From the IMG/VR virus record IMGVR_UViG_3300025096_000009, positions 15,618-79,617 of that record: a DNA stretch of 64,000 nt. One strand, 5' to 3'. The notes beneath the pieces are model-generated. The model did not search any database and was not told the origin of the DNA. It worked only from the letters and a program-made list of their open reading frames with translations. This document shows positions 13,827 to 35,842 of the stretch, in pieces. How positions within the stretch are numbered: position 1 is the stretch's first letter; each line of letters starts with the position of its first letter. The stretch is from a virus. The position numbers and the translations under genes were made by a program.

Positions 13827-16706
13827 ATGTATATTGGGAATGATCTGCAAGTTGCGGAATCAGGCAACAAAATTATTGATGATATAAGCTCTAGTTTTAA
13901 CGGGAGTACAACATCATTCGCGTTGCTGGTAGGTGGGGCAGCTCCTGTTCCTTTTCCAATCAATACTCAGCAGATTTATATATCGGTCAACGGTGTACTT
14001 CAGGAACCAGATCCAACTGGTAGCGCAGGTTTTAAACTATTAGGAAATAATATTGTATTCAGTTCAGCTCCAGCTAATGGACATGCTTTCTTTGGTGTCA
14101 TCTTATCTGGTGCAGATTACGTCACAGTAGGTACGGAGTTCCCTGCAGGCAGTGCTACCGCTCCCTCTATTACCTTTGGAAACGACGACAACACAGGACT
14201 ATATTCTGTAACTGGTGGAACAGTAGGTTTCACTTCAGATGGTGTTCAAACCTTCACCATGGATAGTAATGGTTTTAACTTCCCTGATAGTAAGAAAGTA
14301 AACCTTGGATCTTCGTCGGATTTACAGCTTTATCATGACGGCTCCAATTCATACATAGAGGAAGCAGGAACAGGTAGTTTGTTTCTCCGAGCAACACCTT
14401 CTATTGAATTTAGAAAGGCAGGTGGTACTGAAAAGATGCTCTATGCGGAGCCTGATGCTCAAGTAGAACTCTATTATGACAACACCAAGCGTTTTGAAAC
14501 CACTAACACAGGAACAAATGTTATCGGAATTCACGTAGACGATGGTGCTACACACGACGGAGATGTAACGTTTACTGGTGCAGCTGCTAGTGTTACGTGG
14601 GATAAGTCAGCAGATGATTTGATATTTAATGACAATGCAAAAGCCGCATTCGGTACTTCATCGGATTTAAATATCTATCATGATGGATCTCATAGCTATA
14701 TAGACAGTACTGGTACAGGTTATCTTCTTATACAAGACTCAGGAAACATATATATCAGAACTAATGATTTCCGTGTTCAAACATCAGGTGGCAGTGAAAC
14801 ATGTATTACCTGTAGTGCAAACGGAGCAGTATCACTTAATTTTGACAATAGCACAAAATTTGCCACTACTTCAAGTGGTGCAACGATAACAGGAGACCTA
14901 ATTGTTGGTCAAATAACATCATCAGGTAACATAACGTCTAATGGTACGTACTTAACATTAACGGGTAATAGTTATAACGCATGGTGGGACAAAGCTGCTA
15001 GTGCTCTTGAGTTTCAAGATAATGCTAAGGCAACTTTTGGGACAGCAAATGATCTTCAAATTTATCATGATGGATCTAACTCATATATAAAAGATGCAGG
15101 TACAGGTAATCTTTATATTTTCTCCGAAAACTTACGCATAGAAAATGCAGATGGAAGTGAGTCTTATATAGAAGCTAATGTTAATGGGTCCGTAGAACTT
15201 TATTACGACAACTCAAAGAAATTTGAGACAACTTCAACGGGGGCTAAGGTCTCTAATGTTCTGGAAATAAATAGTAATGGAACTTCAATTGCTGAAAATA
15301 ATTTAAACTTCGAACCTTCTGGAAATGTTTATATTGATCATAGGACTACTTCACAAGATATAATTTTTAGGATGTCTAATTCTTCGGCGTTAGACACAAC
15401 AGCATTAACAATAAAAGCTGACGGGTCTACTACACATCCCGATGCTATTAAGTCTAAATGGGGTGCTGGAGATGATCTTCAAATCTACCATGATGGATCT
15501 AATAGTTATGTTCATAATGATAATGGATCTGGTAACTTCTATATACAAGGCGATGCTATTAGACTCAGATCAAAAACTGGTACTGAAGATTATATAGTAG
15601 CTAATCATAATGGATCCGTAGAACTCTATTACGATAACGCTAAAACTTTTGAAACAGGTACAACAGGAGCAATCCTTAAAGGTGGTAATACAGGCGCAGC
15701 AACTGAATTACAAATTTTTGGTAATGAAGGTCAACGCGGTATATTACTGTTGGCTGCTGATGATGGAGATGATAATGCAGATTATTGGCATTTTGAAGCA
15801 GGAACTGATGGAAACTTAAATATTCAAAATTACAGTGGAGGTTCTTGGGAAAATAGTTTACTTTTAAAAAGTGGTGCAGCCGTAGAACTCTATTATGATG
15901 ACGCTAAGAAGTTAGAGACAACTTCAGCAGGTGCAACTGTAACAGGTAGTCAAAACTCAGCAGTTGAACTTAGGATAGAAAATACTAATAATAGTCAAAA
16001 TGCTGCAATTGCAAAATTAAGCCTACATGGTGGTGATGCTGCAAACCAAGGACCAATAATAGAATTAGATAGAAATGGTGCTTATCATCAAATAGAAGAA
16101 GATGCTTCTGGAAATTTAGATTTTAGTGATAACGGCACAGTTAAATATATAATGGAATCCGATGGTGATTTCCAAATATGTGATGGCGATCTAATCATAG
16201 GAACTTCTGGTCACGGTATTGACTTTAGTGCTACAGGTGGTCCTACTGGTACCGGGGCTTCAAGTGATTCAGAAGTTCTTTCGGACTATGAACATGGGAC
16301 ATGGGTTCCTCTTTTAAGGAATGGAACTAATGAGATTACCTATACAACTGGTAATGCTTCTACAAAGTTTACCTACGTAAAAATTGGTAGATTAGTCCAT
16401 TTAACTTTTTGCTTAAACAATGAAACTACAGCAGGAACTACAGGTGGTAGTAGCAGTTTCCAAATACTAAATGCTCCTTTTGCTCCCGCTGCTGAGAGGA
16501 TTATAAGTACACAAGTGCTTTGGTATGCTACTGGATTGCGTATAAACCAAACACCTATCTTTATGCACCTTCATACCGCTGGTAATTTTGAGGCATATAG
16601 AATGGTTTCTGCTACTGGTGGTTATACTTCAAATAATTGTGAAGTTGAGCAGGTCGGAGCTAGTAGTTATATGTTCTGGCGTATGAGTTATGAAACCAGT
16701 TCATAG
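13827..16706 (+). CDS. Long tail fibre (cyanophage type)
   Basis: DDISSSFNG N-terminus, repeated DLQIYHDGSNSY and VELYYDN units, GTSGHGIDFSA..DYExGTWxP tip. Confidence 0.85.
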   Translation: MYIGNDLQVAESGNKIIDDISSSFNGSTTSFALLVGGAAPVPFPINTQQIYISVNGVLQEPDPTGSAGFKLLGNNIVFSSAPANGHAFFGVILSGADYVTVGTEFPAGSATAPSITFGNDDNTGLYSVTGGTVGFTSDGVQTFTMDSNGFNFPDSKKVNLGSSSDLQLYHDGSNSYIEEAGTGSLFLRATPSIEFRKAGGTEKMLYAEPDAQVELYYDNTKRFETTNTGTNVIGIHVDDGATHDGDVTFTGAAASVTWDKSADDLIFNDNAKAAFGTSSDLNIYHDGSHSYIDSTGTGYLLIQDSGNIYIRTNDFRVQTSGGSETCITCSANGAVSLNFDNSTKFATTSSGATITGDLIVGQITSSGNITSNGTYLTLTGNSYNAWWDKAASALEFQDNAKATFGTANDLQIYHDGSNSYIKDAGTGNLYIFSENLRIENADGSESYIEANVNGSVELYYDNSKKFETTSTGAKVSNVLEINSNGTSIAENNLNFEPSGNVYIDHRTTSQDIIFRMSNSSALDTTALTIKADGSTTHPDAIKSKWGAGDDLQIYHDGSNSYVHNDNGSGNFYIQGDAIRLRSKTGTEDYIVANHNGSVELYYDNAKTFETGTTGAILKGGNTGAATELQIFGNEGQRGILLLAADDGDDNADYWHFEAGTDGNLNIQNYSGGSWENSLLLKSGAAVELYYDDAKKLETTSAGATVTGSQNSAVELRIENTNNSQNAAIAKLSLHGGDAANQGPIIELDRNGAYHQIEEDASGNLDFSDNGTVKYIMESDGDFQICDGDLIIGTSGHGIDFSATGGPTGTGASSDSEVLSDYEHGTWVPLLRNGTNEITYTTGNASTKFTYVKIGRLVHLTFCLNNETTAGTTGGSSSFQILNAPFAPAAERIISTQVLWYATGLRINQTPIFMHLHTAGNFEAYRMVSATGGYTSNNCEVEQVGASSYMFWRMSYETSS

Positions 16707-16737
16707 ACCGTAGCTAAATCTTTAAATAAGGAGAGTA

Positions 16738-17229
16738 ATGAAAGCACCAACTACTAATAATTGCTATAATTTTCGAGTTATATCGATAGATAAGATTGTA
16801 GATGGTGACACAATAGATGTCACTTTCGATTTAGGCTTTGGTATTTGTAAATCTGAAAGAATTAGAGTAGCTGGTATTGATAGTCCAGAGAAAAGAACAC
16901 GTAATCTTGAAGAGAAAGAATTAGGAATAGAAGCGAGTGAATGGCTTGAATGTCAATTAGAAGGCGCCATAGCAGGTGATGAAGATTTAGTGATTAAAAC
17001 TGAATTAGAAGGAGGTAAAGGTAAATTCGGAAGGCTTTTAGGTTGGCTTTATATTGGCTATCCTGAATGTGAAAAAGATTGTAAGTGTAATTGCCATCAT
17101 CAAGTCTCTATCAACGAGACAATGGTGGAAAAGGGATATGCATGGGAGTATGATGGCGGTACCAAATCCAAAGATCTCGAATCTTTAAGAGAAGTTCGTA
17201 GATCTCAGGGTACATTAATTTCTGAGTAA
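16738..17229 (+). CDS. Thermonuclease (SNase-like)
   Basis: IVDGDTIDV..DLGF...RIRVAGIDSPE...KFGRLLG...NETMVEKGYA. Confidence 0.85.
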   Translation: MKAPTTNNCYNFRVISIDKIVDGDTIDVTFDLGFGICKSERIRVAGIDSPEKRTRNLEEKELGIEASEWLECQLEGAIAGDEDLVIKTELEGGKGKFGRLLGWLYIGYPECEKDCKCNCHHQVSINETMVEKGYAWEYDGGTKSKDLESLREVRRSQGTLISE

Positions 17230-17232
17230 ATC

Positions 17233-17475
17233 ATGCAAAAAGTTGTTAACATCATCGCTATTTCGTCTGGTGTTGTATCTCTTGCCGTTATTGGGAGTGG
17301 TTTATTTATATACCTACAAAGAGATAAACTCGTTGATAGCGTTAAGACTCAAGTACTTAAATCAGTTGGTGGAGCACTACCTGGTTTAGTTGATACGAAG
17401 CTTCCCAGCATGACAGGACCTGCATTAGCTCCACCAGCTGCTCCTGCGCCTAAAGGCTTTGGTATACCTAGATAG
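17233..17475 (+). CDS. Cyanophage membrane-anchored small protein
   Basis: N-terminal TM, Pro-rich tail. Confidence 0.6.
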   Translation: MQKVVNIIAISSGVVSLAVIGSGLFIYLQRDKLVDSVKTQVLKSVGGALPGLVDTKLPSMTGPALAPPAAPAPKGFGIPR

Positions 17476-18242
17476 TGGACGAGATACCTGATATTCAGGT
17501 TGAACCAATAAATACATTTTTTGTTCCAGTAAGTACTCTTCCAACTGAGTTTCTACTTCCTGCTGCACCTCCTGTAACTGTAATTATTGGTATTCCTGTA
17601 GTAGAGATGCCGGGATGTGTTGAATGGCATCCTGATGATAAGAGAGCAGGTAATTTACCGATAGAAGATGATAAAGGCGTAAGAACTTTATGCCCCAATG
17701 GACAGTATCCAAGCTTTAATGCGATGGATTACTCTCCAGAGGATTTACTTTATACGTCGGAGGCGCCACCACCTGCATATAAGTCTCCACCACCTCCTGA
17801 AGCTCCTGAGACAGGCGTTCCTGAGATTCCTAAGGAAGAAGTACCATGCCCTGGTCCTAATGCTCCTCGTATAGGAGACGTTGCTCAGAACCAGAAAGAG
17901 AAGGTTTCAGGGTTCAAATTAAATGAGAGTAAAACTATTTGCATTACGTTGTACGAAGATATAGGACCCGTTGAACAATTCCTACCATCTCCTCAAGTTG
18001 TAGCAACAACTGCTACGATTGCGACGGTGGCCACGACATCGGCCCTCCTAGCAAAGCCTTTGGCTGATCTTCTTCTGAAGGTTGTGAAGCCTGCCGTGAA
18101 AAAGGCCATCGGAGCCATCCAAACCAAGCTTGGTCGGAAACCTCGGAAGTTATCTCTTTCGGAGATACAGGCGAATCGTTATCGGGAGAAGAAGGGTTTA
18201 CTTCCGTTGAAGGAGTTGAAGAAGAAGAAGAAGGTGAAATAG
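17475..18242 (+). CDS. Cyanophage Pro-rich membrane-associated protein
   Basis: GTG start overlapping the previous stop; 'PVVEMPGCV', 'AKPLADLLLKVVKP'. Confidence 0.6.
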   Translation: MDEIPDIQVEPINTFFVPVSTLPTEFLLPAAPPVTVIIGIPVVEMPGCVEWHPDDKRAGNLPIEDDKGVRTLCPNGQYPSFNAMDYSPEDLLYTSEAPPPAYKSPPPPEAPETGVPEIPKEEVPCPGPNAPRIGDVAQNQKEKVSGFKLNESKTICITLYEDIGPVEQFLPSPQVVATTATIATVATTSALLAKPLADLLLKVVKPAVKKAIGAIQTKLGRKPRKLSLSEIQANRYREKKGLLPLKELKKKKKVK

Positions 18243-19053
18243 TATGTTGGTGAGGACCTACTACACCTGGTGGATTTACTAATATTACGTCTGAACATAT
18301 CACTGCTGATTTGGATTTTGGATGAAAGCGTATTCCAGCCTTTAGGAGTTCAGCACAATTTTTAAGTCTTGCAATTTCGAAATCTAATCTTTTATTAGCA
18401 ACTAGTTGATTGGTATATTTAATTCTTGAATCCACGGCCCTTTTACATCTTGACTGCAATGATCCATCGAGGGGAATTGAGATGGTAGCGGAGAGCCCAT
18501 AATTAAAGTTGAACTGATCCTTCTGTCCTGTTCTTGTGGGTACATGATACAAGATGGATCCTGGATTATCGACGACCCCATCGTTATTGCCGTCAGAAAC
18601 GTCGTATACAGGATCATTATAGTAATATTCTCTTGGTTCCTGCCAGCTGGTGCTGTCGGTCAAAAATGGCGTGATGTTTAGAGTAGGACCCTGACAGCTG
18701 ATTCCGTCCCCATAGGTGTTGGTAATGTACGGTCCTTGCAAAACCTGGATGGCTTGGTTGGTAACAGAACCTGAGCTATTAGCCACAGGATTAGCAGTGG
18801 CGCTAACACCGCCAACGTCGCCCGCGCGTACTGCTGTGGGGAATAGTGCATTCGCATTGAGTAATACTAATAGAAGGTAGCTTAGTTGCTGAACGTTGAC
18901 GTTGTATCTGTGACGCTTTGGATCTCTGTGACTCTCTGAATTATTGTCTGGTTGACCATTCCGGGTGCTCGATACGTTTCGGTGAATTGGAAGCTGCCAC
19001 CAGGATTTGCTATCGTCCAATTGGGTTTGTTTGCAGCATCTAGACCCGTCCAT
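18013..19053 (-). CDS. Secreted cyanophage/cyanobacterial protein (true start probably near 18890)
   Basis: Signal peptide then 'VGGVSATANPVANSSGSVTNQAIQ', 'RLDFEIARLKNC'; the ORF 5' part overlaps the next gene. Confidence 0.6.
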   Translation of the reverse strand: MDGSRCCKQTQLDDSKSWWQLPIHRNVSSTRNGQPDNNSESHRDPKRHRYNVNVQQLSYLLLVLLNANALFPTAVRAGDVGGVSATANPVANSSGSVTNQAIQVLQGPYITNTYGDGISCQGPTLNITPFLTDSTSWQEPREYYYNDPVYDVSDGNNDGVVDNPGSILYHVPTRTGQKDQFNFNYGLSATISIPLDGSLQSRCKRAVDSRIKYTNQLVANKRLDFEIARLKNCAELLKAGIRFHPKSKSAVICSDVILVNPPGVVGPHQHTISPSSSSSTPSTEVNPSSPDNDSPVSPKEITSEVSDQAWFGWLRWPFSRQASQPSEEDQPKALLGGPMSWPPSQS

Positions 19054-19313
19054 GTCGAAGTAACGCCTTGAAGAGTGTTGCTATTTCCTGTTACTGAATC
19101 AGGAGATATACTTGCACCTGAATGCTGAACATTTGTGCCGGTCACAGTATACTGCCACCCTGTTTGGTAATCAATCGCATTAATTGTCTCTGTCACTTTC
19201 GATGTAGTTTCCGTATGGCTAGTCATACCTCCTTGCGTGAAGTTTGGAATTACGGGAACTGCTCCAGCTTCAGGTATAAACAGTAGTGATAAGAAGAATA
19301 ATAGCCGTTTCAT
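18882..19313 (-). CDS. Secreted protein (AVPVIPNFTQG family)
   Basis: Signal peptide; 'AVPVIPNFTQGGMTSHTET', 'FQFTETY..PG'. Confidence 0.65.
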   Translation of the reverse strand: MKRLLFFLSLLFIPEAGAVPVIPNFTQGGMTSHTETTSKVTETINAIDYQTGWQYTVTGTNVQHSGASISPDSVTGNSNTLQGVTSTWTGLDAANKPNWTIANPGGSFQFTETYRAPGMVNQTIIQRVTEIQSVTDTTSTFSN

Positions 19314-19322
19314 AGTAGCTCA

Positions 19323-19835
19323 TTAATCTCCGATAACTACCTCGCTAACGAATTGACCCGTAGCTGTAGTACCAGCGCCTCCAGCGGTTAGCGTAACCAC
19401 ACCAGCACTAGTAAGAGTCCCTGCCAAAGTACCTGCCACACCACCAGATTGCGTAGTCTGTACACCATATGCTGGCATGTCTGCTACAACTCCAGCCGTA
19501 ACGTCAACACCTGCACCCATTGCATTTATGGCGTCTCCTTGATTATAGCTAGTTGAAAAACTGAAGGCAGATCCTGCGGTATTTATGTCATAAGTACCTA
19601 CATCAAGAGTCGGTGCAGCAGTGGCGCTACCAGCAGTTAGAGCACCGAAGTGACCACTATTTGAAGTATCTACTTTTATATTTGATCCTGAGACTGTATA
19701 AGTTGAACCTAATCTAGTTCCACTTGTTGCTGCTCCATTAACTGTGAGCTGAGTACTTGTCGATAAGCGATGAACGAGATCTGCTCTTACCGGAGAGGCA
19801 CTAAACAATATTAATAATGGGATTAACTTCCACAT
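19323..19835 (-). CDS. Secreted G/T/A-rich protein
   Basis: Signal peptide; 'ADLVHRLSTSTQLTV', 'TAGGAGTTATGQFVSE'. Confidence 0.65.
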   Translation of the reverse strand: MWKLIPLLILFSASPVRADLVHRLSTSTQLTVNGAATSGTRLGSTYTVSGSNIKVDTSNSGHFGALTAGSATAAPTLDVGTYDINTAGSAFSFSTSYNQGDAINAMGAGVDVTAGVVADMPAYGVQTTQSGGVAGTLAGTLTSAGVVTLTAGGAGTTATGQFVSEVVIGD

Positions 19836-19906
19836 GATGAGTAATAATTCTTTGGCGCAATATAAGTTTACCTGAGGTTAAACTTAATACGTATTGCTAC
19901 TATACG

Positions 19907-20371
19907 ATGCCTGAGAATGTAATTAAAGATCCTATAAAAGAGGATAGTTCTAAGAAGAAAAGTGTTCTTGGAAAAATGAAAGATGCCCTTCTTCCTGATC
20001 AAGAAGAACAGGCCGCAATCATATCTACAGGTGTGAGAATCGTAGTACTTGGGTGGTCCGGTGCGATCTTGACTTTAAACTACGTTTCCATCCCAGGAAT
20101 ACCTCAACAGAAAATAGATCCAACCTTCATAGCTTCAGTGTTCACGGGGGTTTTGGCGTCTTTTGGGATCGCTACAGCTAGTAAAAAAGGCGATGGCACG
20201 ATGAAAATGAATGGTGATAGTAATGGGCAAGTAAGTAAGAAAGATATGGAGTCAATGATTGAAAAAGCAACTGCTAATTCTGCTGTACAAACTATTAGAA
20301 TTGAGCAAGCTCCGTTAGTAATTAAGGCTGAAAGTCCTAATTCTAAAGATCCTACAAAATATGAGTTGTAA
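19907..20371 (+). CDS. Two-TM cyanophage membrane protein
   Basis: 'VLGWSGAILTLNYV...IDPTFIASVFTGVLASFG'. Confidence 0.65.
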   Translation: MPENVIKDPIKEDSSKKKSVLGKMKDALLPDQEEQAAIISTGVRIVVLGWSGAILTLNYVSIPGIPQQKIDPTFIASVFTGVLASFGIATASKKGDGTMKMNGDSNGQVSKKDMESMIEKATANSAVQTIRIEQAPLVIKAESPNSKDPTKYEL

Positions 20372-20415
20372 TTGAGTAAGGTCTAGGTAATATATGGACA
20401 GCATTTCATCTTCAT

Positions 20416-21213
20416 GTGCCGAACCTTCATTGGGGATGGGTTTCTGTGGTGTCCAAGAGCCCTACTTGGTTAAAGAAGCGTCCTGTCGATGTAAGTGATC
20501 TTGAGTCCGATGAAAAAGCTGAAGTATGTCCAGCTAGGCCAATAAGGCGCTGTAAAGTTTTAGATCGTAAAAATGACCATACACAGTTAGAAACAGGTTT
20601 AGGGAAGTGGTGGATATCTGATGAGCATTGGTATGGTTTAACTGATGAGACGCCAGATGTCCCTTATTCAATAGATAGAGATTTGATCTATTTGAAGGAC
20701 TTTCCTTACTATTATCAAGAGTCTGATAAGTGGGATGATAGTGCAGTTTTTACATTTTCAATGTGTTTGAAATACCTTAAAACACCTAGTATTAACGGTG
20801 TTATGGATTATCTAGATGTCCTTAATAAGCATGGTAAGAGTACTTCTAGAGAGGCAAATATGAAGTCTTTAGTCGAGTTTGGTAGGAAAGCTACTTTCAC
20901 ATATTCTGCTGATCCTCAAGACGTTAAGGACCAGATAAATAGAGGGTTACCAGTAGCAGCTAGTCTCTTATCCAAGGGTGATATTACAAACCCAAATAGA
21001 GGAACACATCTTGTAGCTATTACTGGATATGGCGATGGATATTGGTTAGTTCAGGATCCTTTCGGAGAAATGGATCTAATTAATGGCTTATGGTCTGATA
21101 GAAGTCCTAGGTCTGGTCAGAATGTTAAATATAATTTTGAGCAGATGGATAGACGTTTATTTGCTAGTGGCGGGGCATCCGGTTGGTGTTGGGTTAATTT
21201 CCGAAAATGTTGA
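20416..21213 (+). CDS. C39-like peptidase fold with SH3-like N-terminus (nucleophile Cys apparently replaced)
   Basis: PYYYQ...; INRGLPV...THLVAITGY...LVQDPFGE. Confidence 0.7.
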   Translation: MPNLHWGWVSVVSKSPTWLKKRPVDVSDLESDEKAEVCPARPIRRCKVLDRKNDHTQLETGLGKWWISDEHWYGLTDETPDVPYSIDRDLIYLKDFPYYYQESDKWDDSAVFTFSMCLKYLKTPSINGVMDYLDVLNKHGKSTSREANMKSLVEFGRKATFTYSADPQDVKDQINRGLPVAASLLSKGDITNPNRGTHLVAITGYGDGYWLVQDPFGEMDLINGLWSDRSPRSGQNVKYNFEQMDRRLFASGGASGWCWVNFRKC

Positions 21214-21275
21214 GTCCTCTGTAAAGATTAGGGAGGGTTATTCTCATCTGAGATGTCAATTTACACTTTCGAATC

Positions 21276-21482
21276 ATGACCGACGCTCCGAAATCATTAG
21301 ATGATCAGTTACAAGATCAGCGTGAGCAACTAGAGACAACAATAAAAGATCTTGAAGCGCAGATTATGCGCGCTAAAGAAGCTTATTTGAAAATTTTAGG
21401 TGCTCAGGAATTCTCTGCAATTCAAAAACAACAAGCTGCAGCAGCTGAAGAAAACACCACTACCGAGGTCGTAGACCCCTAG
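21276..21482 (+). CDS. Small coiled-coil protein
   Basis: Heptads; 'KEAYLKILGAQE'. Confidence 0.6.
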   Translation: MTDAPKSLDDQLQDQREQLETTIKDLEAQIMRAKEAYLKILGAQEFSAIQKQQAAAAEENTTTEVVDP

Positions 21483-21486
21483 AACC

Positions 21487-21723
21487 ATGTTAGGCGAGTT
21501 GAACAAAAGTAGATATCGTGCCCTCGAGTTACTAGCGGAGCATGTACGTGCTCCATCTCGTGAACTCTCCATTAACGCAATCGTTAGTGATATTAGTGAC
21601 GAAGACCTCCGCTGGGTTACTGATCGTATTCATTACTATCTTCTTAAATTATTGGAAGATGCGGAGAATGATCCAATAGAAGAGGAAATTATAACTATTT
21701 CAGAAGAAGCAGAGATTTGTTAA
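21487..21723 (+). CDS. Hypothetical protein
   Basis: ORF in tandem with the previous gene. Confidence 0.55.
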   Translation: MLGELNKSRYRALELLAEHVRAPSRELSINAIVSDISDEDLRWVTDRIHYYLLKLLEDAENDPIEEEIITISEEAEIC

Positions 21724-21753
21724 ACTGAAGTATTCGATTAATTATTTTTTCTC

Positions 21754-21927
21754 GTGGAACCTAAACGTGATCCTTATGAATTTTTACGTGAGAGAGCGTT
21801 AAAAGTTGCTGATGAGATGGAAGATCATAGAAATGAGAGAGACGTGAATATTGGACGTCGGGCAATTGCAGGTGAAAAGCCATCTACTGTCAGAGAAAAG
21901 ATGGATGACAGAGTCATTACTACTTAA
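21754..21927 (+). CDS. 57-aa charged protein (not in ORF track)
   Basis: GTG start; MEPKRDPYEFLRERALKVADEMEDHRNERDVNIGRRAIAGE... Confidence 0.5.
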   Translation: MEPKRDPYEFLRERALKVADEMEDHRNERDVNIGRRAIAGEKPSTVREKMDDRVITT

Positions 21928-21941
21928 TTGAGGATAGTGCT

Positions 21942-22196
21942 ATGAATGAACCATTGTGGGGGCCATTAAAGAAAGAGCACAGTTCCGGTACGAATTCATG
22001 GGGGTCTAGTCAATGGGCTAAATCTTTAGGTGCTGCTAATGCATTTCAAAGTCTTCGCGCTAGCGATTTATTAAAACAAATGGATAGACAATATATTCCA
22101 AAGTCAACTCTTTTAGGACAATATTGGGATCAAGCCGGAAACCCTACAGATGGTCCAGCTTTGCACGAATCTGGTTTAACTAAGTTTGGATTCTAA
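21942..22196 (+). CDS. Hypothetical protein
   Basis: RBS GAGGA; G/S/W-rich. Confidence 0.5.
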   Translation: MNEPLWGPLKKEHSSGTNSWGSSQWAKSLGAANAFQSLRASDLLKQMDRQYIPKSTLLGQYWDQAGNPTDGPALHESGLTKFGF

Positions 22197-23003: not shown

Positions 23004-23052
23004 TTTTAAGTTCCATTACTCGTAGAATATGTGAGTGTAACTATATGTGCAA

Positions 23053-23193: not shown

Positions 23194-23218
23194 TATAAAG
23201 ATAAGGTTCAAACTTTTT

Positions 23219-23434: not shown

Positions 23435-23439
23435 ATACC

Positions 23440-25971: not shown

Positions 25972-25996
25972 AAGATTCTCTAACTGATTAAGTTTA

Positions 25997-26590: not shown

Positions 26591-26607
26591 TCGAGGTCCG
26601 AGGTTAT

Positions 26608-26997: not shown

Positions 26998-27045
26998 GGG
27001 TTTGTGACAGATAGAATCAGTATAGAAGTTAAGCTTAAATAGACA

Positions 27046-27672: not shown

Positions 27673-27677
27673 TAGTC

Positions 27678-28355
27678 TTATTCGTCCACTTCTCCAAAGT
27701 TCAATATTTCATCATAGGTTTGTGTAATTAGGCCGAAGTTTATAGCTAAGTCATGACTATCTTTTACTAATCCCCAGTCGAGAACATTGACGTTAATACT
27801 GATTGAATAGGTGGTTTCGAGATAACGTATATCATTTGTAATTAAGAATAGATATTCCCCAGGGTTTAACTTAGTAATGGGATAGTCATCAGTTCCAATT
27901 TCGACCTCATCATCTAAGTAGTCAACAGCTCCTTCGTTATATACATAGCCATCATCATTAATTGGGAGTTCTTCTCGACGCTTATCTTCAGTTATGCGAT
28001 AAAAAGCTAGTAGTGTATTTTTATTTGTCTGCTCTTCGTAGGAAAATTGAGAATAATCTTGAGTAAATTGGACAGAGCGTGGCTCTACTAATTTTATTTT
28101 ATAGAAAGTTGTTTGCTTACGAGATAATCCTCCATGAGAGTTCTTGATCGTGAATGATCGAAACACAGATGAGAAATCCCCTAAGTCAATCGGGTTATTA
28201 AGGTTATCTCCGTGCTCTTGAGGAAGTGGATCTGAACCATAATATGAATTAGGACCATAAGCAGTAGGACCTGCTCCACCAGTAGGATACGCTTCAACTG
28301 TTCCTAAGTTATAGAAACCTGTATTATTCGGAATTGTTGTCAGATACCTGCTCAT
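27678..28355 (-). CDS. Beta-sandwich protein (possible virion protein)
   Basis: 'TTFYKIKL', 'LNPGEYLFLI' typical of PPC/Ig-like domains. Confidence 0.45.
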   Translation of the reverse strand: MSRYLTTIPNNTGFYNLGTVEAYPTGGAGPTAYGPNSYYGSDPLPQEHGDNLNNPIDLGDFSSVFRSFTIKNSHGGLSRKQTTFYKIKLVEPRSVQFTQDYSQFSYEEQTNKNTLLAFYRITEDKRREELPINDDGYVYNEGAVDYLDDEVEIGTDDYPITKLNPGEYLFLITNDIRYLETTYSISINVNVLDWGLVKDSHDLAINFGLITQTYDEILNFGEVDE

Positions 28356-28860
28356 ATTCTTCTTTTAAGCCAGTAAATAGTCCATGCATAGGATGATCAG
28401 GGTCATCTCTGCCGGATTCTGTATATCGTTCATACATTATTCTAACTCGTTCAGCCATAGCCTTAACTCCTTCTCTGCCGGTGCCTTCTTCTTGCATTGT
28501 GGGGTAAGAATCATAATCTAAGGCAATTTCTAAATGTTTTAAAGCCCATTCAGCCCTTTCCTGATCTTCTGAGTCAAACCAAGCAGTGTAATGTGATTCA
28601 CCACCTAATGTAACTACACCTGCATATTGTTTTTCATCTAAATGATAATTACTTGGGAAGACTTGACTACTTTTCGCTACTATTTTTGGCCTCTTTGTCC
28701 TTGTGGTGCTGGAAGATGTCTCCATGGTTGAGTCTGATTCTCTCAATTTCATTTGGCTCCGGATAATTTTTGAGTTCTTTGATTGTAAGGTGTGTTGGGT
28801 TACAACAGAAGGCTTTGCATGTTGGTCTGCTAAAAATCCTATATTTACCTGTATAGCCAC
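28324..28860 (-). CDS. Hypothetical protein (true start probably at METSS, ~28725)
   Basis: ORF; 5' part overlaps the HNH-like gene. Confidence 0.45.
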   Translation of the reverse strand: MAIQVNIGFLADQHAKPSVVTQHTLQSKNSKIIRSQMKLRESDSTMETSSSTTRTKRPKIVAKSSQVFPSNYHLDEKQYAGVVTLGGESHYTAWFDSEDQERAEWALKHLEIALDYDSYPTMQEEGTGREGVKAMAERVRIMYERYTESGRDDPDHPMHGLFTGLKEEYEQVSDNNSE

Positions 28861-29800
28861 GACTTAACCAGAACGCCACCCTTGATGCTGATTGGGTTTT
28901 AGCTGAGTGGAAAGGAGACCCAGGAAAATAAGCTGTTGATTCAGTATTGTTTTTTCTTGTAGCACCTTGCCATAGCCAGCATTCATCGATTTCTTTTATA
29001 TCAACTTGATCCCAGAAAGTTTTTACTTGCCAATACCAAGTTCGAAAATCAAAATTAGTGACATCTATGGAGCACCTTCCTTTTTTTATCTCCTCCATAC
29101 AGTCAAGGCACTCTCCCATGAGCCCAAAATTACCTTTGTGGGTTGATTCTCCTTTTTGATGCCAAGGGCACTCTAATTCTTGTGTCATGTGATAGGCGAG
29201 ATTAAATTTTTTAGCTTCAGTTGGGTAAGCAGTTGTTAGTTTTTCGCATGTTAGAAGCACTCCCTCCCAGATTTCCGTTAGATTATCGGACTTAGGAGCA
29301 TTTGCAACTTCTTCATATGTCTCATTATTACAGAGACGTCTAACAGTATGATAAGGAATTTTATAAACTTTAGATAATTTCAAACTACTTATCCCTTCTT
29401 CACTTTCCACTCTTAATTTAGTTATTAAGTCATTATTTAAACCTATTTCTCTTTTTTGTGCATTTTCATATGCCACATCATTCCTAGTTCCCCAATAGTA
29501 ATGAGATGGGTTTAAACAATACTGAGAGGTACAACAGGCTCTTCGAACAACTATTGAGTTATTTCCTTCACTATATTTTCCCGCCATTGAAAGCAATAGT
29601 GGTCGAGCATCTTTATTTTTATAGCGAAGTATCCTTGTTTTACTAGTTTTAAAACCTTGAAAGACAGCATTAGTATGCTTTTTCATGCACCAGCATTTAT
29701 CTTTTCCTACGCCTTGGAATAAGATTTGAAATGCTTTAGCAAAGGCGATTTGGTCCTCTGGTGTAAGGGAGTCATCTAAAAAAGGAGAAGATTGGCTCAT
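28667..29800 (-). CDS. Tandem HNH-like (Zn-binding loop) plus HTH DNA-binding protein
   Basis: Two CW.....C..xCxNPxH units flanking 'GISSLKLSKVYKIPYHTVRRLC'. Confidence 0.7.
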   Translation of the reverse strand: MSQSSPFLDDSLTPEDQIAFAKAFQILFQGVGKDKCWCMKKHTNAVFQGFKTSKTRILRYKNKDARPLLLSMAGKYSEGNNSIVVRRACCTSQYCLNPSHYYWGTRNDVAYENAQKREIGLNNDLITKLRVESEEGISSLKLSKVYKIPYHTVRRLCNNETYEEVANAPKSDNLTEIWEGVLLTCEKLTTAYPTEAKKFNLAYHMTQELECPWHQKGESTHKGNFGLMGECLDCMEEIKKGRCSIDVTNFDFRTWYWQVKTFWDQVDIKEIDECWLWQGATRKNNTESTAYFPGSPFHSAKTQSASRVAFWLSRGYTGKYRIFSRPTCKAFCCNPTHLTIKELKNYPEPNEIERIRLNHGDIFQHHKDKEAKNSSEK

Positions 29801-30168
29801 GCTGAGTAGGGTGAGGAATAGAGATTAACATAAAAGCCTGTCAGAGACAAGAAAATCATTCAACAGTCAAGTAGGAATTTTTTACCCCTATATTATTTAC
29901 TTCTAAGGATAGTGAGGTTAGGTACATGACTGTCAATATTTATATATACACTCTTATACCTAACCACAACATACACATACTTAAGTGAAACCCCCTTTAT
30001 TTTTTTAAACTTGGGTGTTGATATCAAATCAGTTGTTGTGGAATAAGTTTCGAAGGAAGTGGAGTTGTTTTGTCGAGTTCCCCTACCCTGTTTTTAGGGT
30101 ATTTTTAGCCTATTTTTAAATATCTGTACTTTGGGTTAGGTATTTGACTGTTAAATTTTGATTGAAAG
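29801..30168. other. Longest non-coding stretch noticed; candidate replication origin or packaging site
   Basis: AT-rich with GGTTAGGTA direct (29916, 30134) and inverted (29957) copies. Confidence 0.4.
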
Positions 30169-30369
30169 TTATATTACACTCAGGACCCTAACCTCAACAT
30201 GCTTTGAGAATTCTTCGAAGGTATCAGCAAATATAGTGGCTTCATCTTCGGTTTTTGCATAGCGGCACATTCCGCCTCCGTTAGAGCAGACTAAATGTCT
30301 TTTATGTCCTCTATTTTCAAAGACTTCTATTGTTGTTCCGTGCGGTAAGATTGTCATCTTATCTACCAT
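30169..30369 (-). CDS. Hypothetical protein
   Basis: ORF with 'VCS..GGMCRY'. Confidence 0.5.
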   Translation of the reverse strand: MVDKMTILPHGTTIEVFENRGHKRHLVCSNGGGMCRYAKTEDEATIFADTFEEFSKHVEVRVLSVI

Positions 30370-30418
30370 TTCCCGATGATAATATTATAAGAGAAACCTT
30401 ACGAATTATTGAGTAGAC

Positions 30419-31318
30419 ATGTCAGTATATGATAAATATCAAAAAGCCTGGGGTATTGAAAGCGGTTTACAAGCTGGTAAATCTTTTTTAAATAAATTTG
30501 TTCCTCGTGTTTTAGGTAACCCTGCTGTTAGAGGTGTTTTAAATAATCCAGTTGTAAGAGTAGGTGGTGGGGCTGCTTCAAAATTATTTAGTCTTCCTGC
30601 TCAATTGTTTATTCATGAAGTAGCTAAGCCTAATCCTTGGGGTGATAAGAATTCTCCAATGTATGGCAAAGGACCAGGGAGTTTGGAATATGCAGCAGCT
30701 ATAGAGAGGGCAAATGCAGCTGGTAGGAATAACCCTATTGAAGAAGATTATCTTATAACTCCCCCAGTAGAGGGATCAACGTCTGGGCCTAAAATATCTA
30801 ACATTGGTGAAACACCTAAAGAGTTTCAAGTAGGTGGTAAGTATGGTCCTAGTGAAGAGGCTTTAATAGATATTGCGGATGATGCAACTCTTTATAATGC
30901 GAAGGGTGACTATACAGGCGGTGTTTTACCAGAAGGAGATGGTATAGATCATCGTGCTACTTGGCTACACAATAGTCGTAATAGTCCGGCTGCTAAAGCG
31001 GGTCTTTCAGAAGATGCTAGATGGGGAACATATCTAGGGAATCAGGCATGGAGAAAAGATCAAGGTAGAAGCTATGACACATCTATAGATCATTTATTAA
31101 AGCCTTCTTCTGAGAATAAGAGACATTGGGATGTATTTGGTAATAAAGTTGTAATGGATGATAATCAGTCTGCTGTATCCCAGAAGGTAGATGCTTTTTT
31201 AGATACTGTTCCTGCAGAGGTTATTGAAGCAAATATAGCTAAGAATGATGCGGATAAAGCTAAGGTTAATAGTGGTGCGATGACTGCTGCGGAATACTTC
31301 GGAACTAATATAAGATAG
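30419..31318 (+). CDS. Low-complexity protein (candidate internal virion protein)
   Basis: G/A-rich; AGKSFLNKF and KVDAFLDTV motifs. Confidence 0.55.
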   Translation: MSVYDKYQKAWGIESGLQAGKSFLNKFVPRVLGNPAVRGVLNNPVVRVGGGAASKLFSLPAQLFIHEVAKPNPWGDKNSPMYGKGPGSLEYAAAIERANAAGRNNPIEEDYLITPPVEGSTSGPKISNIGETPKEFQVGGKYGPSEEALIDIADDATLYNAKGDYTGGVLPEGDGIDHRATWLHNSRNSPAAKAGLSEDARWGTYLGNQAWRKDQGRSYDTSIDHLLKPSSENKRHWDVFGNKVVMDDNQSAVSQKVDAFLDTVPAEVIEANIAKNDADKAKVNSGAMTAAEYFGTNIR

Positions 31319-31356
31319 TTATAGCCTTATAATTAGTATAAATAGTTAATAAAGTA

Positions 31357-31578
31357 ATGAACGGCGCAGGATTTGATCCATCTGGTTTTGACATGACTGA
31401 TATTGGTGATCCTCGGCGCCAATCGAAGTTACCTGGTGGGTATGCAACTCAGGGACAAGCAGTTAGTGCACCTTATGCGGATGCAAATAAGGCAGCAGCT
31501 GCAAAAACTAATCCTATGAATGCTGCTTCCCAAGGGATAGGCGATAGGGTTGATCATTTTCTTAGTCAATTGGGCTAA
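31357..31578 (+). CDS. Small disordered protein
   Basis: Ends GDRVDHFLSQLG; TATAAT upstream. Confidence 0.55.
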   Translation: MNGAGFDPSGFDMTDIGDPRRQSKLPGGYATQGQAVSAPYADANKAAAAKTNPMNAASQGIGDRVDHFLSQLG

Positions 31579-31805
31579 TGGGCGATAATGATTTCCCAGC
31601 AGTAATGGCCAACGGTGGTTGGGATGAAGCCAAAGATAAGGCATCTAAATGGAAGTCATATAGAAGTGGTTCATCTTCATATAGTCAATCTGGTACAGAT
31701 ATTCCTACTGGAGGCATGTATTCGAGGGGTGAAGCTACTGATGGATCCGACATAGCACCATATGGATATGAGGAATTTGGAGTTACTCCTAGTTTGTTAG
31801 GGTAA
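31578..31805 (+). CDS. Small G/S/Y-rich protein
   Basis: TAATG overlap with the previous gene. Confidence 0.55.
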   Translation: MGDNDFPAVMANGGWDEAKDKASKWKSYRSGSSSYSQSGTDIPTGGMYSRGEATDGSDIAPYGYEEFGVTPSLLG

Positions 31806-31861
31806 GTAGTAGGTTTTCTAAGCGTAAAATTAGATATATAGACTAAAGATTAGGCTGGTAG

Positions 31862-34027
31862 ATGTCACAAACAAAAGCACAATTACTTGACAATATCAAG
31901 GACAATGTTCAGCTAGATGCACGAAACTCTTTACGGTTCGCTGATACTGACTCAAGTCATTACGTAGCTTTCAAGGCTCCAGCTACAGTTTCGAGTAATG
32001 TTACTTGGACTTTACCTGCAGCAGATGGCAGTGCAAATTACGTATTAGCTACGGATGGTAGTGGAACTTTAAGTTGGATTGCTGATCCAGCTGGGCAATG
32101 GGTTACTAGTGGAAGCAATATTTATTTCACCGGAGGCAATGTAGGAATAGGAGATAGTTCGCCAAGTAATCCTCTATCCGTGACAGGTGTTGCAGCTTTT
32201 AATGGAGATGTAACTTTTACTGGTGCGAGTTATAACGCTCTTTGGGATAAATCGGATAACGCTCTTGAGTTTGCGGATAATGTGAAAGTGATTTTGGGGA
32301 GTGGAGACGACACACATCTTTACCACAACGGTAGCCATACTTATATTTCACATAGAGGTACAGGTGATTTAATTCTTGAACCTAAAGAAGGTGAAAATGG
32401 TGTAGTTTTAAAAGCTGACGGAGCCGTAGAACTCTATTACGATAATTCTCGAATGTTACGCACCACTGCAACAGGGGGCATTCTTTCGGGTAACTGGTCT
32501 CTAACAGATGACAATAAAATGATGTTCGGGACAGGGGATGATTTATATGTTTATCATGATGGATCTACAAATATAATTGATGGTCGATATCATCCTATTG
32601 AACTAAGACATCAATCAGAAGTACATATCAAATGTGTAGATGATGGAGCCGTAGAACTCTATTACGATAACAGTAAGAAATTTGAAACTGATTCAAATGG
32701 TATCTGGGTTAGCGGAGCGTTACGTGGTGAGTCTGTTGACTTAGCAGATGACAAGAAAATTCTATTAGGTTCTGGAGATGATCTTGAAATCTATCATAGT
32801 GGTAATCAGAACCTTATTAAATCTACTAATGGAAGGATTAATTTATTAGCTGCTGAAACTCGTATGGAGTCAGCTAGTGGTTCTGAAGTTCTAGCAAAGT
32901 TTATTGAAAACGGAGCCGTAGAACTCTTTCATGACAATGTAAAGAAATTAGAGACAGCGAGTACTGGTATAGAAGTAAACGGTGGAAAAATAGAACTTAA
33001 AGGTGCTGAAGGTGGAGAAGCTCAACTACAATTAAAAGCTGACGAAGGTGATGATAATGATGATTCTTGGCGAATTGTAGCAAATACAGATAATAATTTA
33101 ATTCTTGGCAACTTAGCTTCTGGTACTTGGGAAAATTCTATAAAAGCTATTGGTAATGGAGCCGTAGAACTCTATTACGACAACTCAAAGAAATTAGAGA
33201 CAGATTCAAGCGGAGTTTCCGTTTGGGGCAACTTAATGCTTGAGAGTGATGATGATATTCTTTATATTGGTCATGGTTCAGATATAAGGATCTGGCATGA
33301 TGGGGCTAACTCTCACTTTCGTAGTTATACAGGTGAATTGAGAATAGAACCTGATAATGGGCAAACTTTAAGTATTAATAATCAAGCTAATACTGTAGAT
33401 TCAGCTAAATTTATTATCGGTGGATCCGTAGAACTCTATTACGACAACTCAAAGAAATTAGAGACAGATAGTTTTGGGACCTCTATTCAAGGTGATTGTT
33501 TAAAAGTTCCTGATGGTACAGCTGGTAGTCCTGGCTTTACTTGGAATAATGAGGGTAATGCTGATACAGGTATTTTCCGTCCAGGTGCTAATATTATCGC
33601 GTTTAGTAACGCTGGTACTGAAAATTTCCGTATTGCAGCTAACGGTGATCTAACAGCTACTGATACTACTATTGGGTCTAATTCTGACCAAAGATTGAAA
33701 ACTAATATTAATGATTTTACCTATGATTTAGCTAAATTTAAGCAATTTAAACCTAAAACATTTGATTGGAAAAATCCTGGTGAACATGGAAACAAAACAG
33801 GTCAGAGAGGATTCTTAGCACAAGATGTTGAATCTATTGATAACTATTTAGTTGGAGAATGTTTCATACATGATGATGATCCAGATCGCTCATTAGTAGA
33901 TTCAGATGGAAAATTTAAAACATCTAAATTAGGTAAGAATGATGCTATGTATATTTCAGTTATAAATCAATTGATAACAAAAATAGAAACCTTAGAAACA
34001 AAAGTAGCTGCGTTAGAAAGTGCATAA
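31862..34027 (+). CDS. Tail fibre with C-terminal intramolecular chaperone (peptidase S74-like)
   Basis: Five GxVELxxDN repeats; NSDQRLKTNI...KPKTFDWK...GFLAQDV; terminal coiled coil. Confidence 0.85.
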   Translation: MSQTKAQLLDNIKDNVQLDARNSLRFADTDSSHYVAFKAPATVSSNVTWTLPAADGSANYVLATDGSGTLSWIADPAGQWVTSGSNIYFTGGNVGIGDSSPSNPLSVTGVAAFNGDVTFTGASYNALWDKSDNALEFADNVKVILGSGDDTHLYHNGSHTYISHRGTGDLILEPKEGENGVVLKADGAVELYYDNSRMLRTTATGGILSGNWSLTDDNKMMFGTGDDLYVYHDGSTNIIDGRYHPIELRHQSEVHIKCVDDGAVELYYDNSKKFETDSNGIWVSGALRGESVDLADDKKILLGSGDDLEIYHSGNQNLIKSTNGRINLLAAETRMESASGSEVLAKFIENGAVELFHDNVKKLETASTGIEVNGGKIELKGAEGGEAQLQLKADEGDDNDDSWRIVANTDNNLILGNLASGTWENSIKAIGNGAVELYYDNSKKLETDSSGVSVWGNLMLESDDDILYIGHGSDIRIWHDGANSHFRSYTGELRIEPDNGQTLSINNQANTVDSAKFIIGGSVELYYDNSKKLETDSFGTSIQGDCLKVPDGTAGSPGFTWNNEGNADTGIFRPGANIIAFSNAGTENFRIAANGDLTATDTTIGSNSDQRLKTNINDFTYDLAKFKQFKPKTFDWKNPGEHGNKTGQRGFLAQDVESIDNYLVGECFIHDDDPDRSLVDSDGKFKTSKLGKNDAMYISVINQLITKIETLETKVAALESA

Positions 34028-34094
34028 AAGTTGACGGGTTAGAAAGTGCATAAAAGTTGACGGGTTAGAAAGTGCATAAAAGTTGACGGGTTAG
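34012..34094 (+). repeat. 26-bp tandem repeat x3.2
   Basis: GTTAGAAAGTGCATAAAAGTTGACGG at 34012, 34038 and 34064, plus partial GTTAG. Confidence 0.95.
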
Positions 34095-34155
34095 TGATCT
34101 TACAATGAATAGAAAGCTCTGCAAAGGGTAAGTATCATTTTTGTTTGATATCTAA

Positions 34156-35775
34156 ATGGCATACATTGGTAGACAACTTGTACGAGGTCAGAATCGTGTT
34201 CTTGATGACATCTCAAGTAGTTTTAATGGCAGTACGACTGCTTTCAACTTAACGGTTTCGAGTTCATCGTCTCCTCCAGCGAGTGTTAATCAACTCTGGA
34301 TAATTCTCGGTGGTGTTATACAGAAGCCAGGGACTGACTTTACGGTTGCCGATGCTGTTATTACATTTACGACTGCTCCAGCTTCTACTTTAAGTTTCTG
34401 GGGGATGATTCAAGGTGATACTTCAGACATTAACTCACCAGCTGATGCTTCAGTCACGCCTTCTAAGATTGCTAATAGTGGGGATTTTGCTTTTCCGGCT
34501 GACGTTAGATTTAAAGATGCAGATGCCTCACATTATGTAGGTTTACAAGCACCATCTACTGTAAGTAGTAATTTAGTTTGGACATTACCTGCGGCGGATG
34601 GCTCGGCTAATCAAGTACTTAAAACAGATGGATCAGGGGCATTAGGGTGGGCTTCTGATGCTAATGCACCGGAAGGTACAGCTGTATTGTCTACTGGTGA
34701 AACTGGAACGACTAAATATTTAAGAGTAGATGGAGATAATACTTGTTCTTGGCAACTCGCAGTCGATGCAACAAAGATGCCTCTTGCTGGTGGTACGTTC
34801 ACAGGAGATGTCACATTTACAGGTGATAGCAGTAATGGGTTATGGGATAAGTCAGCGAATGCGTTTGTTGCAAACTTAACTGGTACGGCCTCTGGAAATG
34901 CTGTTCTAACAGGTTCGACTAATAATACCATTACTACGGTTACCGGAGCCGATGCAATTCAAGGAGAGGCCAATCTTACTTTTGATGGTAATAATTTAAC
35001 TCAAACTATTGATGCAGATGGTGAAGGAATTGTTATTACAGGAGGATCATCAAATATTAAGGCGATGCTTACTGGTAATACAAATAGATCCTCCGCTAAT
35101 AACACTATATTTGGAGTAAGTGGAAAATGGAATAGTACCGAAGTAGGTAGGATTGCTTTTGAGGCTGGTGCTGATACAACCAATAAAGATGATGGACATA
35201 TAAATTTTTATACAACTCCTTCTGGTGGAAGTCTTACATCAAGATTTGATATACAAGCTGATGGTAATGTAAAAATAGCTGACGGTGATCTAGTAATAGG
35301 AACGTCTGGTCACGGTATTGACTTTAGTGCTAACTCTCACGCTGGAGGTATGACAAGTGAGACGTTGGACGCGTATGAAGAAGGAACATTTACACCTACA
35401 TACGTATTTCATAGTAGTACAGGAACATTTGGGTATAGTACTCAGACTGGTACATACACCAAAATAGGTAATAGGGTTTTCTTTTCAGTAGTTATCATTG
35501 CAAGTTCACATAGTGGTACAAGTACTGGAAACCTTATGTTAGCTGGTTTACCTTATGCAGTACCTTCGACAACACCTATTCCCGGTAGTTGTTTCTTTAT
35601 TATTGGTGGTAATTTTACTACAGATTATGGTGTTGCTCTACAAACAAATCAAAGTGAGAGAATAGAATTCTATAGACAAGTACAAAGCACAGGTGCTAAT
35701 TATTCTCCTGTAGACGCTTCTGAGGTAAGTTTAGGTAGTTTATATATAAAATGCCAAGGACAATATCTAACCTAA
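34156..35775 (+). CDS. Tail fibre (cyanophage type)
   Basis: DDISSSFNG N-terminus, TLPAADG linker, GTSGHGIDFSA..DAYEEGTFTP..YTKIGNRV tip. Confidence 0.85.
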   Translation: MAYIGRQLVRGQNRVLDDISSSFNGSTTAFNLTVSSSSSPPASVNQLWIILGGVIQKPGTDFTVADAVITFTTAPASTLSFWGMIQGDTSDINSPADASVTPSKIANSGDFAFPADVRFKDADASHYVGLQAPSTVSSNLVWTLPAADGSANQVLKTDGSGALGWASDANAPEGTAVLSTGETGTTKYLRVDGDNTCSWQLAVDATKMPLAGGTFTGDVTFTGDSSNGLWDKSANAFVANLTGTASGNAVLTGSTNNTITTVTGADAIQGEANLTFDGNNLTQTIDADGEGIVITGGSSNIKAMLTGNTNRSSANNTIFGVSGKWNSTEVGRIAFEAGADTTNKDDGHINFYTTPSGGSLTSRFDIQADGNVKIADGDLVIGTSGHGIDFSANSHAGGMTSETLDAYEEGTFTPTYVFHSSTGTFGYSTQTGTYTKIGNRVFFSVVIIASSHSGTSTGNLMLAGLPYAVPSTTPIPGSCFFIIGGNFTTDYGVALQTNQSERIEFYRQVQSTGANYSPVDASEVSLGSLYIKCQGQYLT

Positions 35776-35842
35776 CATCTTAGACCGTCGCTAAGTCTCT
35801 AAACTAAGCCATAAACCTGTTTCGTTCGGAGAACGTCCCTAA

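Follow-up and report, generated by a model that had tools for sequence, protein, structure and literature searches.

Two conserved DNA blocks as probable borders of an exchangeable receptor-binding head cassette in the tail-fiber genes of a marine cyanophage

In a 64,000-nucleotide stretch of viral DNA, hereafter the window (bases 15618-79617 of the 79,617-bp IMG/VR virus record IMGVR_UViG_3300025096_000009, whose completeness was rated 93%), two tail-fiber genes were found to carry the same two short DNA blocks on either side of their C-terminal heads. We consider it probable that these blocks delimit, on its left and its right, a receptor-binding head cassette that can be exchanged, and comparison with related sequences lends good support to cassette exchange by homologous recombination at the short anchors. 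The left border would be 24-37 nt of coding DNA, specifying the peptide GHGIDFSA at the neck between shaft and head and identical even at silent positions, while the right border would be a module of ~25 nt with an AGAC/GTCT stem, located at or just past the stop codon. The features of the two fiber loci are as follows.

13827-16706, + strand: fiber gene 1, 959 amino acids (aa), with an N-terminal attachment domain, repeat shaft, anchor, and head; matches PHROG tail-fiber families
16197-16233, + strand: left anchor, copy 1 (IGTSGHGIDFSA), core at 16209-16232
16233-16703, + strand: head (tip) cassette 1, a linker and a predicted beta-sandwich starting from the motif SDYEHGTW
16704-16726, + strand: right module, copy 1, with AGAC, loop, and TCT followed by TAAA; its TAG is the stop codon of fiber 1
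34156-35775, + strand: fiber gene 2, 539 aa, an open reading frame (ORF) with a PHROG match
35296-35332, + strand: left anchor, copy 2 (IGTSGHGIDFSA), core at 35308-35331
35332-35772, + strand: head (tip) cassette 2, whose model matches the C-terminal domain of the Det7 tailspike
35781-35808, + strand: right module, copy 2 (TAGACCGTCGCTAAGTCTCTAAACTAAG); the block match at 35781-35803 begins 6 nt past the stop codon of fiber 2

The border blocks and the heads between them

An earlier note on this DNA, made from its letters alone, had described a left block identical at 36 of 37 positions and a right block identical at 20 of 23, and had claimed more silent-site identity than protein constraint would demand. 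These claims were borne out. The two left copies differ by a single base, and when both strands were searched, the block pattern was present at just these two places, with no match in 100 shuffles; the surrounding similarity extends to 78 nt at 83% (16156-16233 versus 35255-35332). In the right block, 20 of the 23 bases are the same in both copies (0.01 matches expected by chance), and the copies stand at or just past the stop codons. Conditioned on the identical 12-residue peptide and the codon usage of this genome, 4.7 identical codons were expected in the left block and 11 were found (P(>=11) = 1.8e-4). Both copies of each block lie on the + strand in direct orientation. The module is present only twice in the 79.6-kb record, each time directly after a head. 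A third module-like match at 48459 had three mismatches and unrelated sequence around it and was taken as a chance occurrence.

The codon invariance of the 24-nt anchor core was determined in a set of 23 distinct anchors, comprising 21 relatives and the two of the window, which had been found via the neighboring gene for a 99-aa protein and not via the fiber. In order, the core codons and their counts were GGT (22/23), CAC (18/18), GGT (23/23), ATT (21/23), GAC (21/23), TTT (22/23), AGT (21/22), and GCT (21/22). Divergence in the 60 nt of DNA on either side of the core was at or near saturation. Two of the invariant codons are minority choices in this genome, with shares of 27% for CAC and 26% for GAC. 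As a control, the equally conserved glycine of the nearby YEEG motif varied in its codon (GGA 9, GGT 6, GGG 5, GGC 3), and the glycines of the KIG and GLP motifs were likewise free in codon choice, in a control set that includes loci found with the exact block. The same core was present in 10 of the 19 metagenome loci retrieved by a distal-shaft peptide. No match to the core pattern was obtained in the species-representative prokaryote genomes scanned, and a 52-nt anchor query had no match among GenBank phages at E<=1. A second instance of conservation at the nucleotide level within fiber genes was observed in the VELYYDN shaft repeat, which keeps one DNA core (GTAGAACTCTATTACGA...) in 10 copies in fiber 1 and a third fiber (14463-15936, 32386-33482).

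Fibers 1 and 2 have their N-terminal domain and the C-terminal ~166 aa in common. The tips had been described as divergent in the earlier note, and they are, with 32% aa identity (BLASTP E 9e-17) in an alignment of 166 aa that takes in the anchor, but they are not unrelated: since the C-termini align at this level and both heads match phrog_17970 (E 8.9e-9 and 3.6e-16), the tips are divergent members of one head family, among whose heads the mean column identity is 26%. A structure model of the last 175 aa of fiber 2, built on 91 sequences, had a predicted local distance difference test score (pLDDT) of 81.5 and placed the anchor peptide first, then a low-confidence linker, and then a beta-sandwich starting at DAYEEGTF. 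Given this order, the anchor is predicted to lie exactly at the boundary between the shaft and the head domain. The best match among solved folds was the C-terminal domain of the Det7 tailspike gp208 (PDB 6F7D/6F7K), from a Salmonella myovirus, with a Foldseek E of 3e-5, a template-modeling (TM) score of 0.55 on the query, 28% identity over 141 columns, and a profile E of 3.6e-4 to residues 411-514; the match spans the sandwich only and not the anchor. Weaker fold matches were obtained to the receptor-binding heads of TP901-1, PSA, and reovirus sigma-C, and 105 matches at E<=1e-3 were found among the predicted viral structures of BFVD, many of them annotated as tail fibers of cyanophages or T7-like phages. 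By profile and by modeled fold, the C-terminal ~130 aa can thus be classed as a head of the phrog_17970 / Det7 gp208 C-terminal domain type. We also considered that some heads might be silent, promoterless cassettes, and rejected this idea, since the shortest anchor ORFs (205-250 aa) all have N-terminal domains and start codons of their own.

Probable exchange of heads among related loci

From all loci obtained, 139 heads were extracted, 95 of which were distinct, and shafts, heads, and flanks were compared at the nucleotide level using BLASTN. The relatives in all comparisons were metagenome-assembled contigs, designated here by L numbers. In L327 and L334, the shafts (97% over 370 nt) and the downstream DNA (95% over 358 nt) were alike, while the heads could not be aligned; the same pattern was found at lower identity for L277/L297 versus L324 and for L056 versus L287. 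Other loci had similar heads on unrelated shafts and next to unrelated downstream DNA (L329/L334, 91%; L280/L305, 90%; L016/L272, 93%; L311/L326, 86%; L007/L023, 92%; L302/L305, 82%). This arrangement was found in six of the seven tip-shared pairs, whose heads were 77-96% identical.

At the left junction, 10 of the 11 shaft-shared pairs lost identity in the comparison interval starting 14-26 nt past the first base of the core, at its 3' edge; in the eleventh, indels defeated the ungapped junction test. In five of six tip-shared pairs, identity began at or just upstream of the core. At the right junction, L329/L334, L016-480/L272, and L007/L023 were identical through the stop codon and the hairpin module and diverged just past the module, L280/L305 diverged past a second type of module, and L311/L326 and L302/L305 diverged near the stop codon. 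In the flank-shared pairs, identity resumed at the TAGACC of the module.

The same decoupling of shaft and head was evident at the protein level among 82 fibers. Shafts were at least 60% identical in 13 pairs, two of which also shared the tip, and tips were at least 60% identical in 10 pairs, two of which also shared the shaft. The nearest neighbors by shaft and by tip concurred in 5 of the 82 fibers, with a Mantel r of 0.15. The anchors themselves were co-conserved in other viruses, with the 23-nt core pattern occurring in 88 IMG/VR stretches, up to three times per contig, and the module following 63 of the 95 distinct heads; in 15 of these 63, the TAG of the module is the stop codon. The proposal in the earlier note that tips are swapped by homologous recombination between fixed anchors is therefore supported by decoupled histories, by anchors shared widely, and by junctions at the block edges, from which we infer the mechanism. 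Of the two outcomes that the note had named as refuting it, anchors without co-conservation in other phages and a tip phylogeny congruent with the shaft, neither was found.

Since many fiber genes, within one genome and lineage-wide, carry both blocks in direct orientation, a homologous (annealing-type) crossover inside the blocks would be possible. It could take place during co-infection or between paralogs, and would replace a head of ~135-170 aa, leaving the shaft and the downstream genes undisturbed. The genome encodes a T7-like replication set that includes an exonuclease and a single-stranded DNA-binding protein (SSB). The T7 exonuclease and SSB are able to support annealing-type recombination, and the proteins encoded here may do the same. 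Judged from the alignments, the block pattern is what homology-dependent crossover within 24-37 nt of identity would leave. The invariance of the core would then be maintained because of exchange, and the exchanged heads would determine host range.

A further proposal is that anchor and module form a selected diversity system free of reverse transcriptase (RT), in which recognition at the hairpin loop or the 24-nt core raises head replacement well above background recombination. We regard this as rather unlikely. If it were true, the blocks would serve as standard sockets for at least five fiber architectures, with two or three fiber genes per genome, and marine cyanophages would hold a population-wide library of interchangeable receptor-binding heads.

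Alternative explanations for the conserved blocks

The blocks might be kept for functions other than exchange, with the crossovers being incidental because these are the only identical stretches available. The peptide could act in neck folding or trimer registry, combined with a constraint on the nucleic acid, and the module could be an RNA- or protein-binding expression signal. The evidence bearing on the latter comes from the right-hand locus, which was sampled independently of the fiber by searching IMG/VR with the 99-aa gene; 188 relatives were found and 79 loci were fetched. In the window, this locus continues past the module with two features.

35809-35842, + strand: spacer and hairpin; the hairpin at 35823-35835 (CGTTC-GGA-GAACG) bears the GGAG Shine-Dalgarno (SD) sequence of the next gene
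35843-36142, + strand: 99-aa gene (phrog_6228), a fixed flank on the right of the fiber-2 locus in 188 viral stretches

An upstream ORF of at least 150 aa was present in 74 loci, and a count by hand gave 67 of these with the module. In nearly all of these, it opens a conserved leader of ~59 nt that consists of the module (consensus (T)AGACCGTTAGCA.GTCT..AAACTA.GC), a spacer, and the GGAG hairpin just before the ATG, and the leader is present irrespective of the type of fiber C-terminus. In the stem of the SD hairpin, three pairs covary, with compensation in 26, 21, and 31 of the 53 sequences and no broken pair, and the GGAG is placed in the loop and the 3' arm; the hairpin may be a translational control element of the 99-aa gene. 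The AGAC/GTCT stem of the module was invariant in 53 of 53 aligned relatives. The attachment of the module to a leader with a covarying SD hairpin looks regulatory, and a function other than exchange is also favored by the conservation of the loop letters besides the stem and by the conservation of the anchor peptide far outside the lineage, in the fibers of cyanomyoviruses and podoviruses.

However, a constraint on the peptide does not explain the invariant minority codons. The module, which is the first ~25 nt of the leader, also stands alone after the stop codons of other fiber genes with different leaders and different downstream DNA, as at fiber 1, where it is followed by the SD sequence and ATG of an SNase-like gene, and in the same place in the relative L178. 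An Rfam search of 35700-35900 gave no match, and a crude consensus scan of 33900-36300 revealed no sigma-70 promoter or intrinsic terminator pattern at the module. Both module copies in the record stand right after heads, and this explanation in any case leaves exchange at the blocks undisputed. Taken together, we consider it unlikely that the blocks are there for such functions alone.

Several further observations were made on the module and its surroundings. A second post-stop module (ATATCTAAATGTA[C/G]TACGAATAAAAT) stands at the right end of the shared heads of L280, L305, L013, L326, and L302, and both kinds occur in tandem in L302. The loop of the first module (16709-16717, 35786-35794) exists in two versions: most relatives have CGTTAGCAC, and the window shares CGT(A/C)GCTAA with L020, L042, L094, L327, L329, and L334. 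In tip-shared pairs, the version goes along with the head. A long-range pairing of the anchor with the module was considered by eye only and dropped, as it gave 5-nt matches and the loop variants did not covary with the anchor. The 99-aa protein is conserved at 70-92% aa identity beside the fiber; its model (pLDDT 92.8) consists of a long three-stranded beta-meander and two helices, and a fold search gave no match, the best structural Z in the PDB being only 3.6.

It is less probable still that dedicated sequence-recognizing machinery, such as a phage or host nuclease or an unusual recombinase, drives frequent head replacement in place of general homology-dependent recombination; we regard this as quite improbable. 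It would fit such machinery that both blocks and the loop letters are extremely invariant, that the junctions are sharply confined to the blocks, that the SNase-like nuclease gene directly follows the module of fiber 1, and that an HNH-like ORF is present. Against it, and in agreement with the earlier note, which had reported no RT or invertase, Pfam scans of ORFs of at least 80-90 aa across the whole 79.6-kb record detected no RT, invertase, integrase, or transposase. The SNase-like gene is common in cyanophages and stands in other contexts in T4-like phages. Junctions were found at other motifs too, as expected of homology-driven exchange.

The depth of the blocks was examined in one metagenome, run X2, by placing its Logan contigs on 33900-36400; these are contigs and not raw reads, and are uninformative on ends, strands, and rare variants. 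Depth, which sums all sequences of at least 88% likeness, was 284 in the anchor bin, 10.3 across the interior of head 2, and 202 in the module bin, with a range of 202-213 for the module together with the first part of the 99-aa gene, so that the blocks had 20-28 times the depth of this head. Since it is summed over contigs at this threshold, the depth indicates that many sequences share the blocks and does not give copy numbers. Three contigs in X2 and one in X3 match the window to 35331 and then enter a different head. Along the window's own shaft, head, and flank, the depth in X2 is even at ~10, which argues that this join is real.

Assembly chimeras at the shared blocks are suggested by the k-mer-based Logan contigs of X2, which end inside the anchor (34966-35316, then 35303-35818, the latter a single 516-nt contig covering exactly this interval) and just past the module (35818), with neither block spanned by a listed contig and hence with assembler ambiguity there, and by the origin of all relatives from metagenome contigs. 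However, the stretches of exact identity, mostly 24-37 nt, would generally fall short of the read lengths and large k-mers with which current assemblers work, some mosaic forms turned up again in separate assemblies (L277 = L297, L035 ~ L191), and the heads of tip-shared pairs differ by 4-23%, so that they belong to diverged lineages and are not the sequence of one sample pasted twice. Such an artifact, or in-place divergence of heads under diversifying selection without exchange, which is unable to put 77-96% identical heads on unrelated shafts, is therefore very improbable.

Some observations weigh against the interpretation of the blocks as cassette borders. A misjoin at a shared block would mimic a swap in the metagenome contigs that provide all the comparative evidence, the silent-site invariance could serve another function, and the binomial tails for the codons are optimistic because the sequences were treated as independent. 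Among the 95 distinct heads, eight were followed by the second module type and 24 by neither type as judged by the pattern used, four of these 24 having degenerate copies. In the sixth tip-shared pair examined at the left junction, L007/L023, identity begins only at the DYEEG motif. The window genome itself provides solely the pattern of alignable flanks with an unalignable head, and the closest copy of its two heads in the sampled set has 42% aa identity. No recent swap can be demonstrated on the window's own shaft, because its closest distal-shaft relatives in a protein-based scan have at most 63% aa identity; an exact 40-nt stretch of the distal shaft had no match in metagenome contigs.

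The anchors are also not the only junctions. The N-terminal ~200 aa of fiber 2 (34156-34755) share 89-94% nucleotide identity with other contigs whose distal parts are entirely different, and the similarity breaks near 34755, just after the motif DGDNTCSWQ. Other necks carry heads of the same family, namely GAGISFD, GHGINFAA, and FNGDTAAANALDDYEEG. The last of these constitutes a second neck class (L034, L041, L050, L066, L078, L080, L086, L088, L178, L179, L348, L423), whose DNA (TTT AAC GGN GAT ACA GCA GCG GCG AAT GCT) is near-invariant at silent sites save for the glycine codon, with rare GCG codons included. Consequently, the anchors would be preferred sockets and not the sole crossover sites.

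Among the contigs sharing the N-terminus of fiber 2, L098 has a long NTAVG-repeat shaft and L102 a short unrelated end. A shaft motif, LTGSTNNTITTVTGA.AIQGEANLTFDG (34897-35010), is 81-91% identical at the aa level in dozens of metagenome contigs that are otherwise unlike fiber 2, and is probably another module junction.

Genome context and comparison with known systems

The window contains psbA and genes for a family-A DNA polymerase, a primase-polymerase/D5-type helicase, SSB, exonuclease, and terminase. A 752-aa portal-like protein had Synechococcus phage S-EIV1 as its sole match among GenBank phages (52% aa identity over 97% of the query). From portal relatedness and the photosystem gene, the virus can be assigned to an S-EIV1-like marine cyanophage lineage; S-EIV1 itself has neither the anchor nor the head profile. 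No near-identical DNA to 13000-37000 of the window was found among 50,697 GenBank phage records. Two further genes mentioned here are located as follows.

28667-29800: HNH-like ORF
51269-52360: psbA, photosystem gene (Pfam scan)

Directly 3' of fiber 1 lie the SNase-like endonuclease gene and a small gene of 'plasmid stability' type (16738-17475). The former matched 252 records in all, with 66-71% nucleotide identity to the cyanomyovirus records among the matches listed, and the two genes are also adjacent in P-TIM68 and S-H68; the pair is common to different phage lineages. S-H68 was considered as a relative of the window and rejected, as it is a partial T4-like genome with only the SNase-like gene in common. 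Upstream of fiber 2, a perfect 26-nt tandem repeat at 34012-34094 (3.2 copies, 100% identity) is made up of the end of the third fiber ORF (31862-34027), with its stop codon, and the first intergenic bases. It is single-copy in the relative L104 and appears to stem from very recent duplication by slippage between two GTTAG microhomologies. An Mtd_N domain (N-terminal domain of the major tropism determinant; E 2e-11) was found in a 134-aa ORF at 12705-13109, in a genome with no detected RT.

Diversity-generating retroelements (DGRs) act on tail-fiber tips of the Mtd type, diversifying the C-terminal receptor-binding end, and their variable part has a conserved, hairpin-containing sequence at its 3' end. 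The window resembles them in its varying C-terminal end and its conserved 3' hairpin sequence. In contrast to DGRs, it has no detected RT or template repeat, since a repeat search of the window found no second copy of either head; its heads differ throughout and not at selected sites, and its Mtd_N ORF is a separate protein. A DGR was rejected on these grounds, and invertible segments of the Gin/Cin/Min type were rejected because no recombinase domain was found. With both block copies in direct orientation on the + strand and no RT, invertase, or integrase detected, DGRs and inversion systems are therefore excluded as defined.

Repeated intergenic motifs at the borders of swapped DNA are also known from T4-type phages, in which PeSL (promoter-early stem-loop) elements, composed of sigma-70-like early promoters and terminator stem-loops, flank non-essential ORFs (Arbiol et al., 2010, PMC2839356; Comeau et al., 2014, PMC4122927). 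The module is such a motif in this respect. It differs from these elements in having no promoter or terminator pattern in a crude scan, in flanking fiber heads, and in being paired with a coding anchor.

A further close parallel is provided by the receptor-recognizing proteins of T-even phages. Trojet et al. (2011, PMC3157838) reported that crossovers obtained experimentally in gp38 lay within small conserved motifs, such as glycine-rich motifs and His boxes, and that gp37/gp38 recombinants with altered host range arose with no need for extended homology. As in that account of gp37/gp38, the variable receptor-binding segments of the window are bounded by short conserved motifs, and crossover points inside the motifs were found here by sequence comparison (10 of 11 shaft-shared and 6 of 7 tip-shared pairs), whereas in the T-even phages exchange was obtained from crosses. 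Compared with that description, the fibers of the window are unrelated in protein and fold, with no Pfam or PHROG match to gp37/gp38, the exchange unit would be a whole head of ~150 aa and not loops within one domain, and non-coding DNA forms the right border, which can also provide the stop codon.

No description of the anchor and head motifs was found among the papers listed by full-text searches for motif strings and for the topic of fiber recombination. The host range of cyanophages in the ocean shapes mortality in Synechococcus and Prochlorococcus populations, and the loci described here offer a precisely delimited natural cassette, for which dozens of environmental genomes provide junction-level evidence of exchange. 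The use of standard sockets at a domain boundary would represent a design principle that could guide host-range prediction and the engineering of fibers for phages of laboratory cyanobacteria. In comparison with the known systems, what is new is the combination of a codon-invariant coding anchor, predicted to lie at the domain boundary, with a post-stop module, across several fiber architectures of an uncultured cyanophage lineage.

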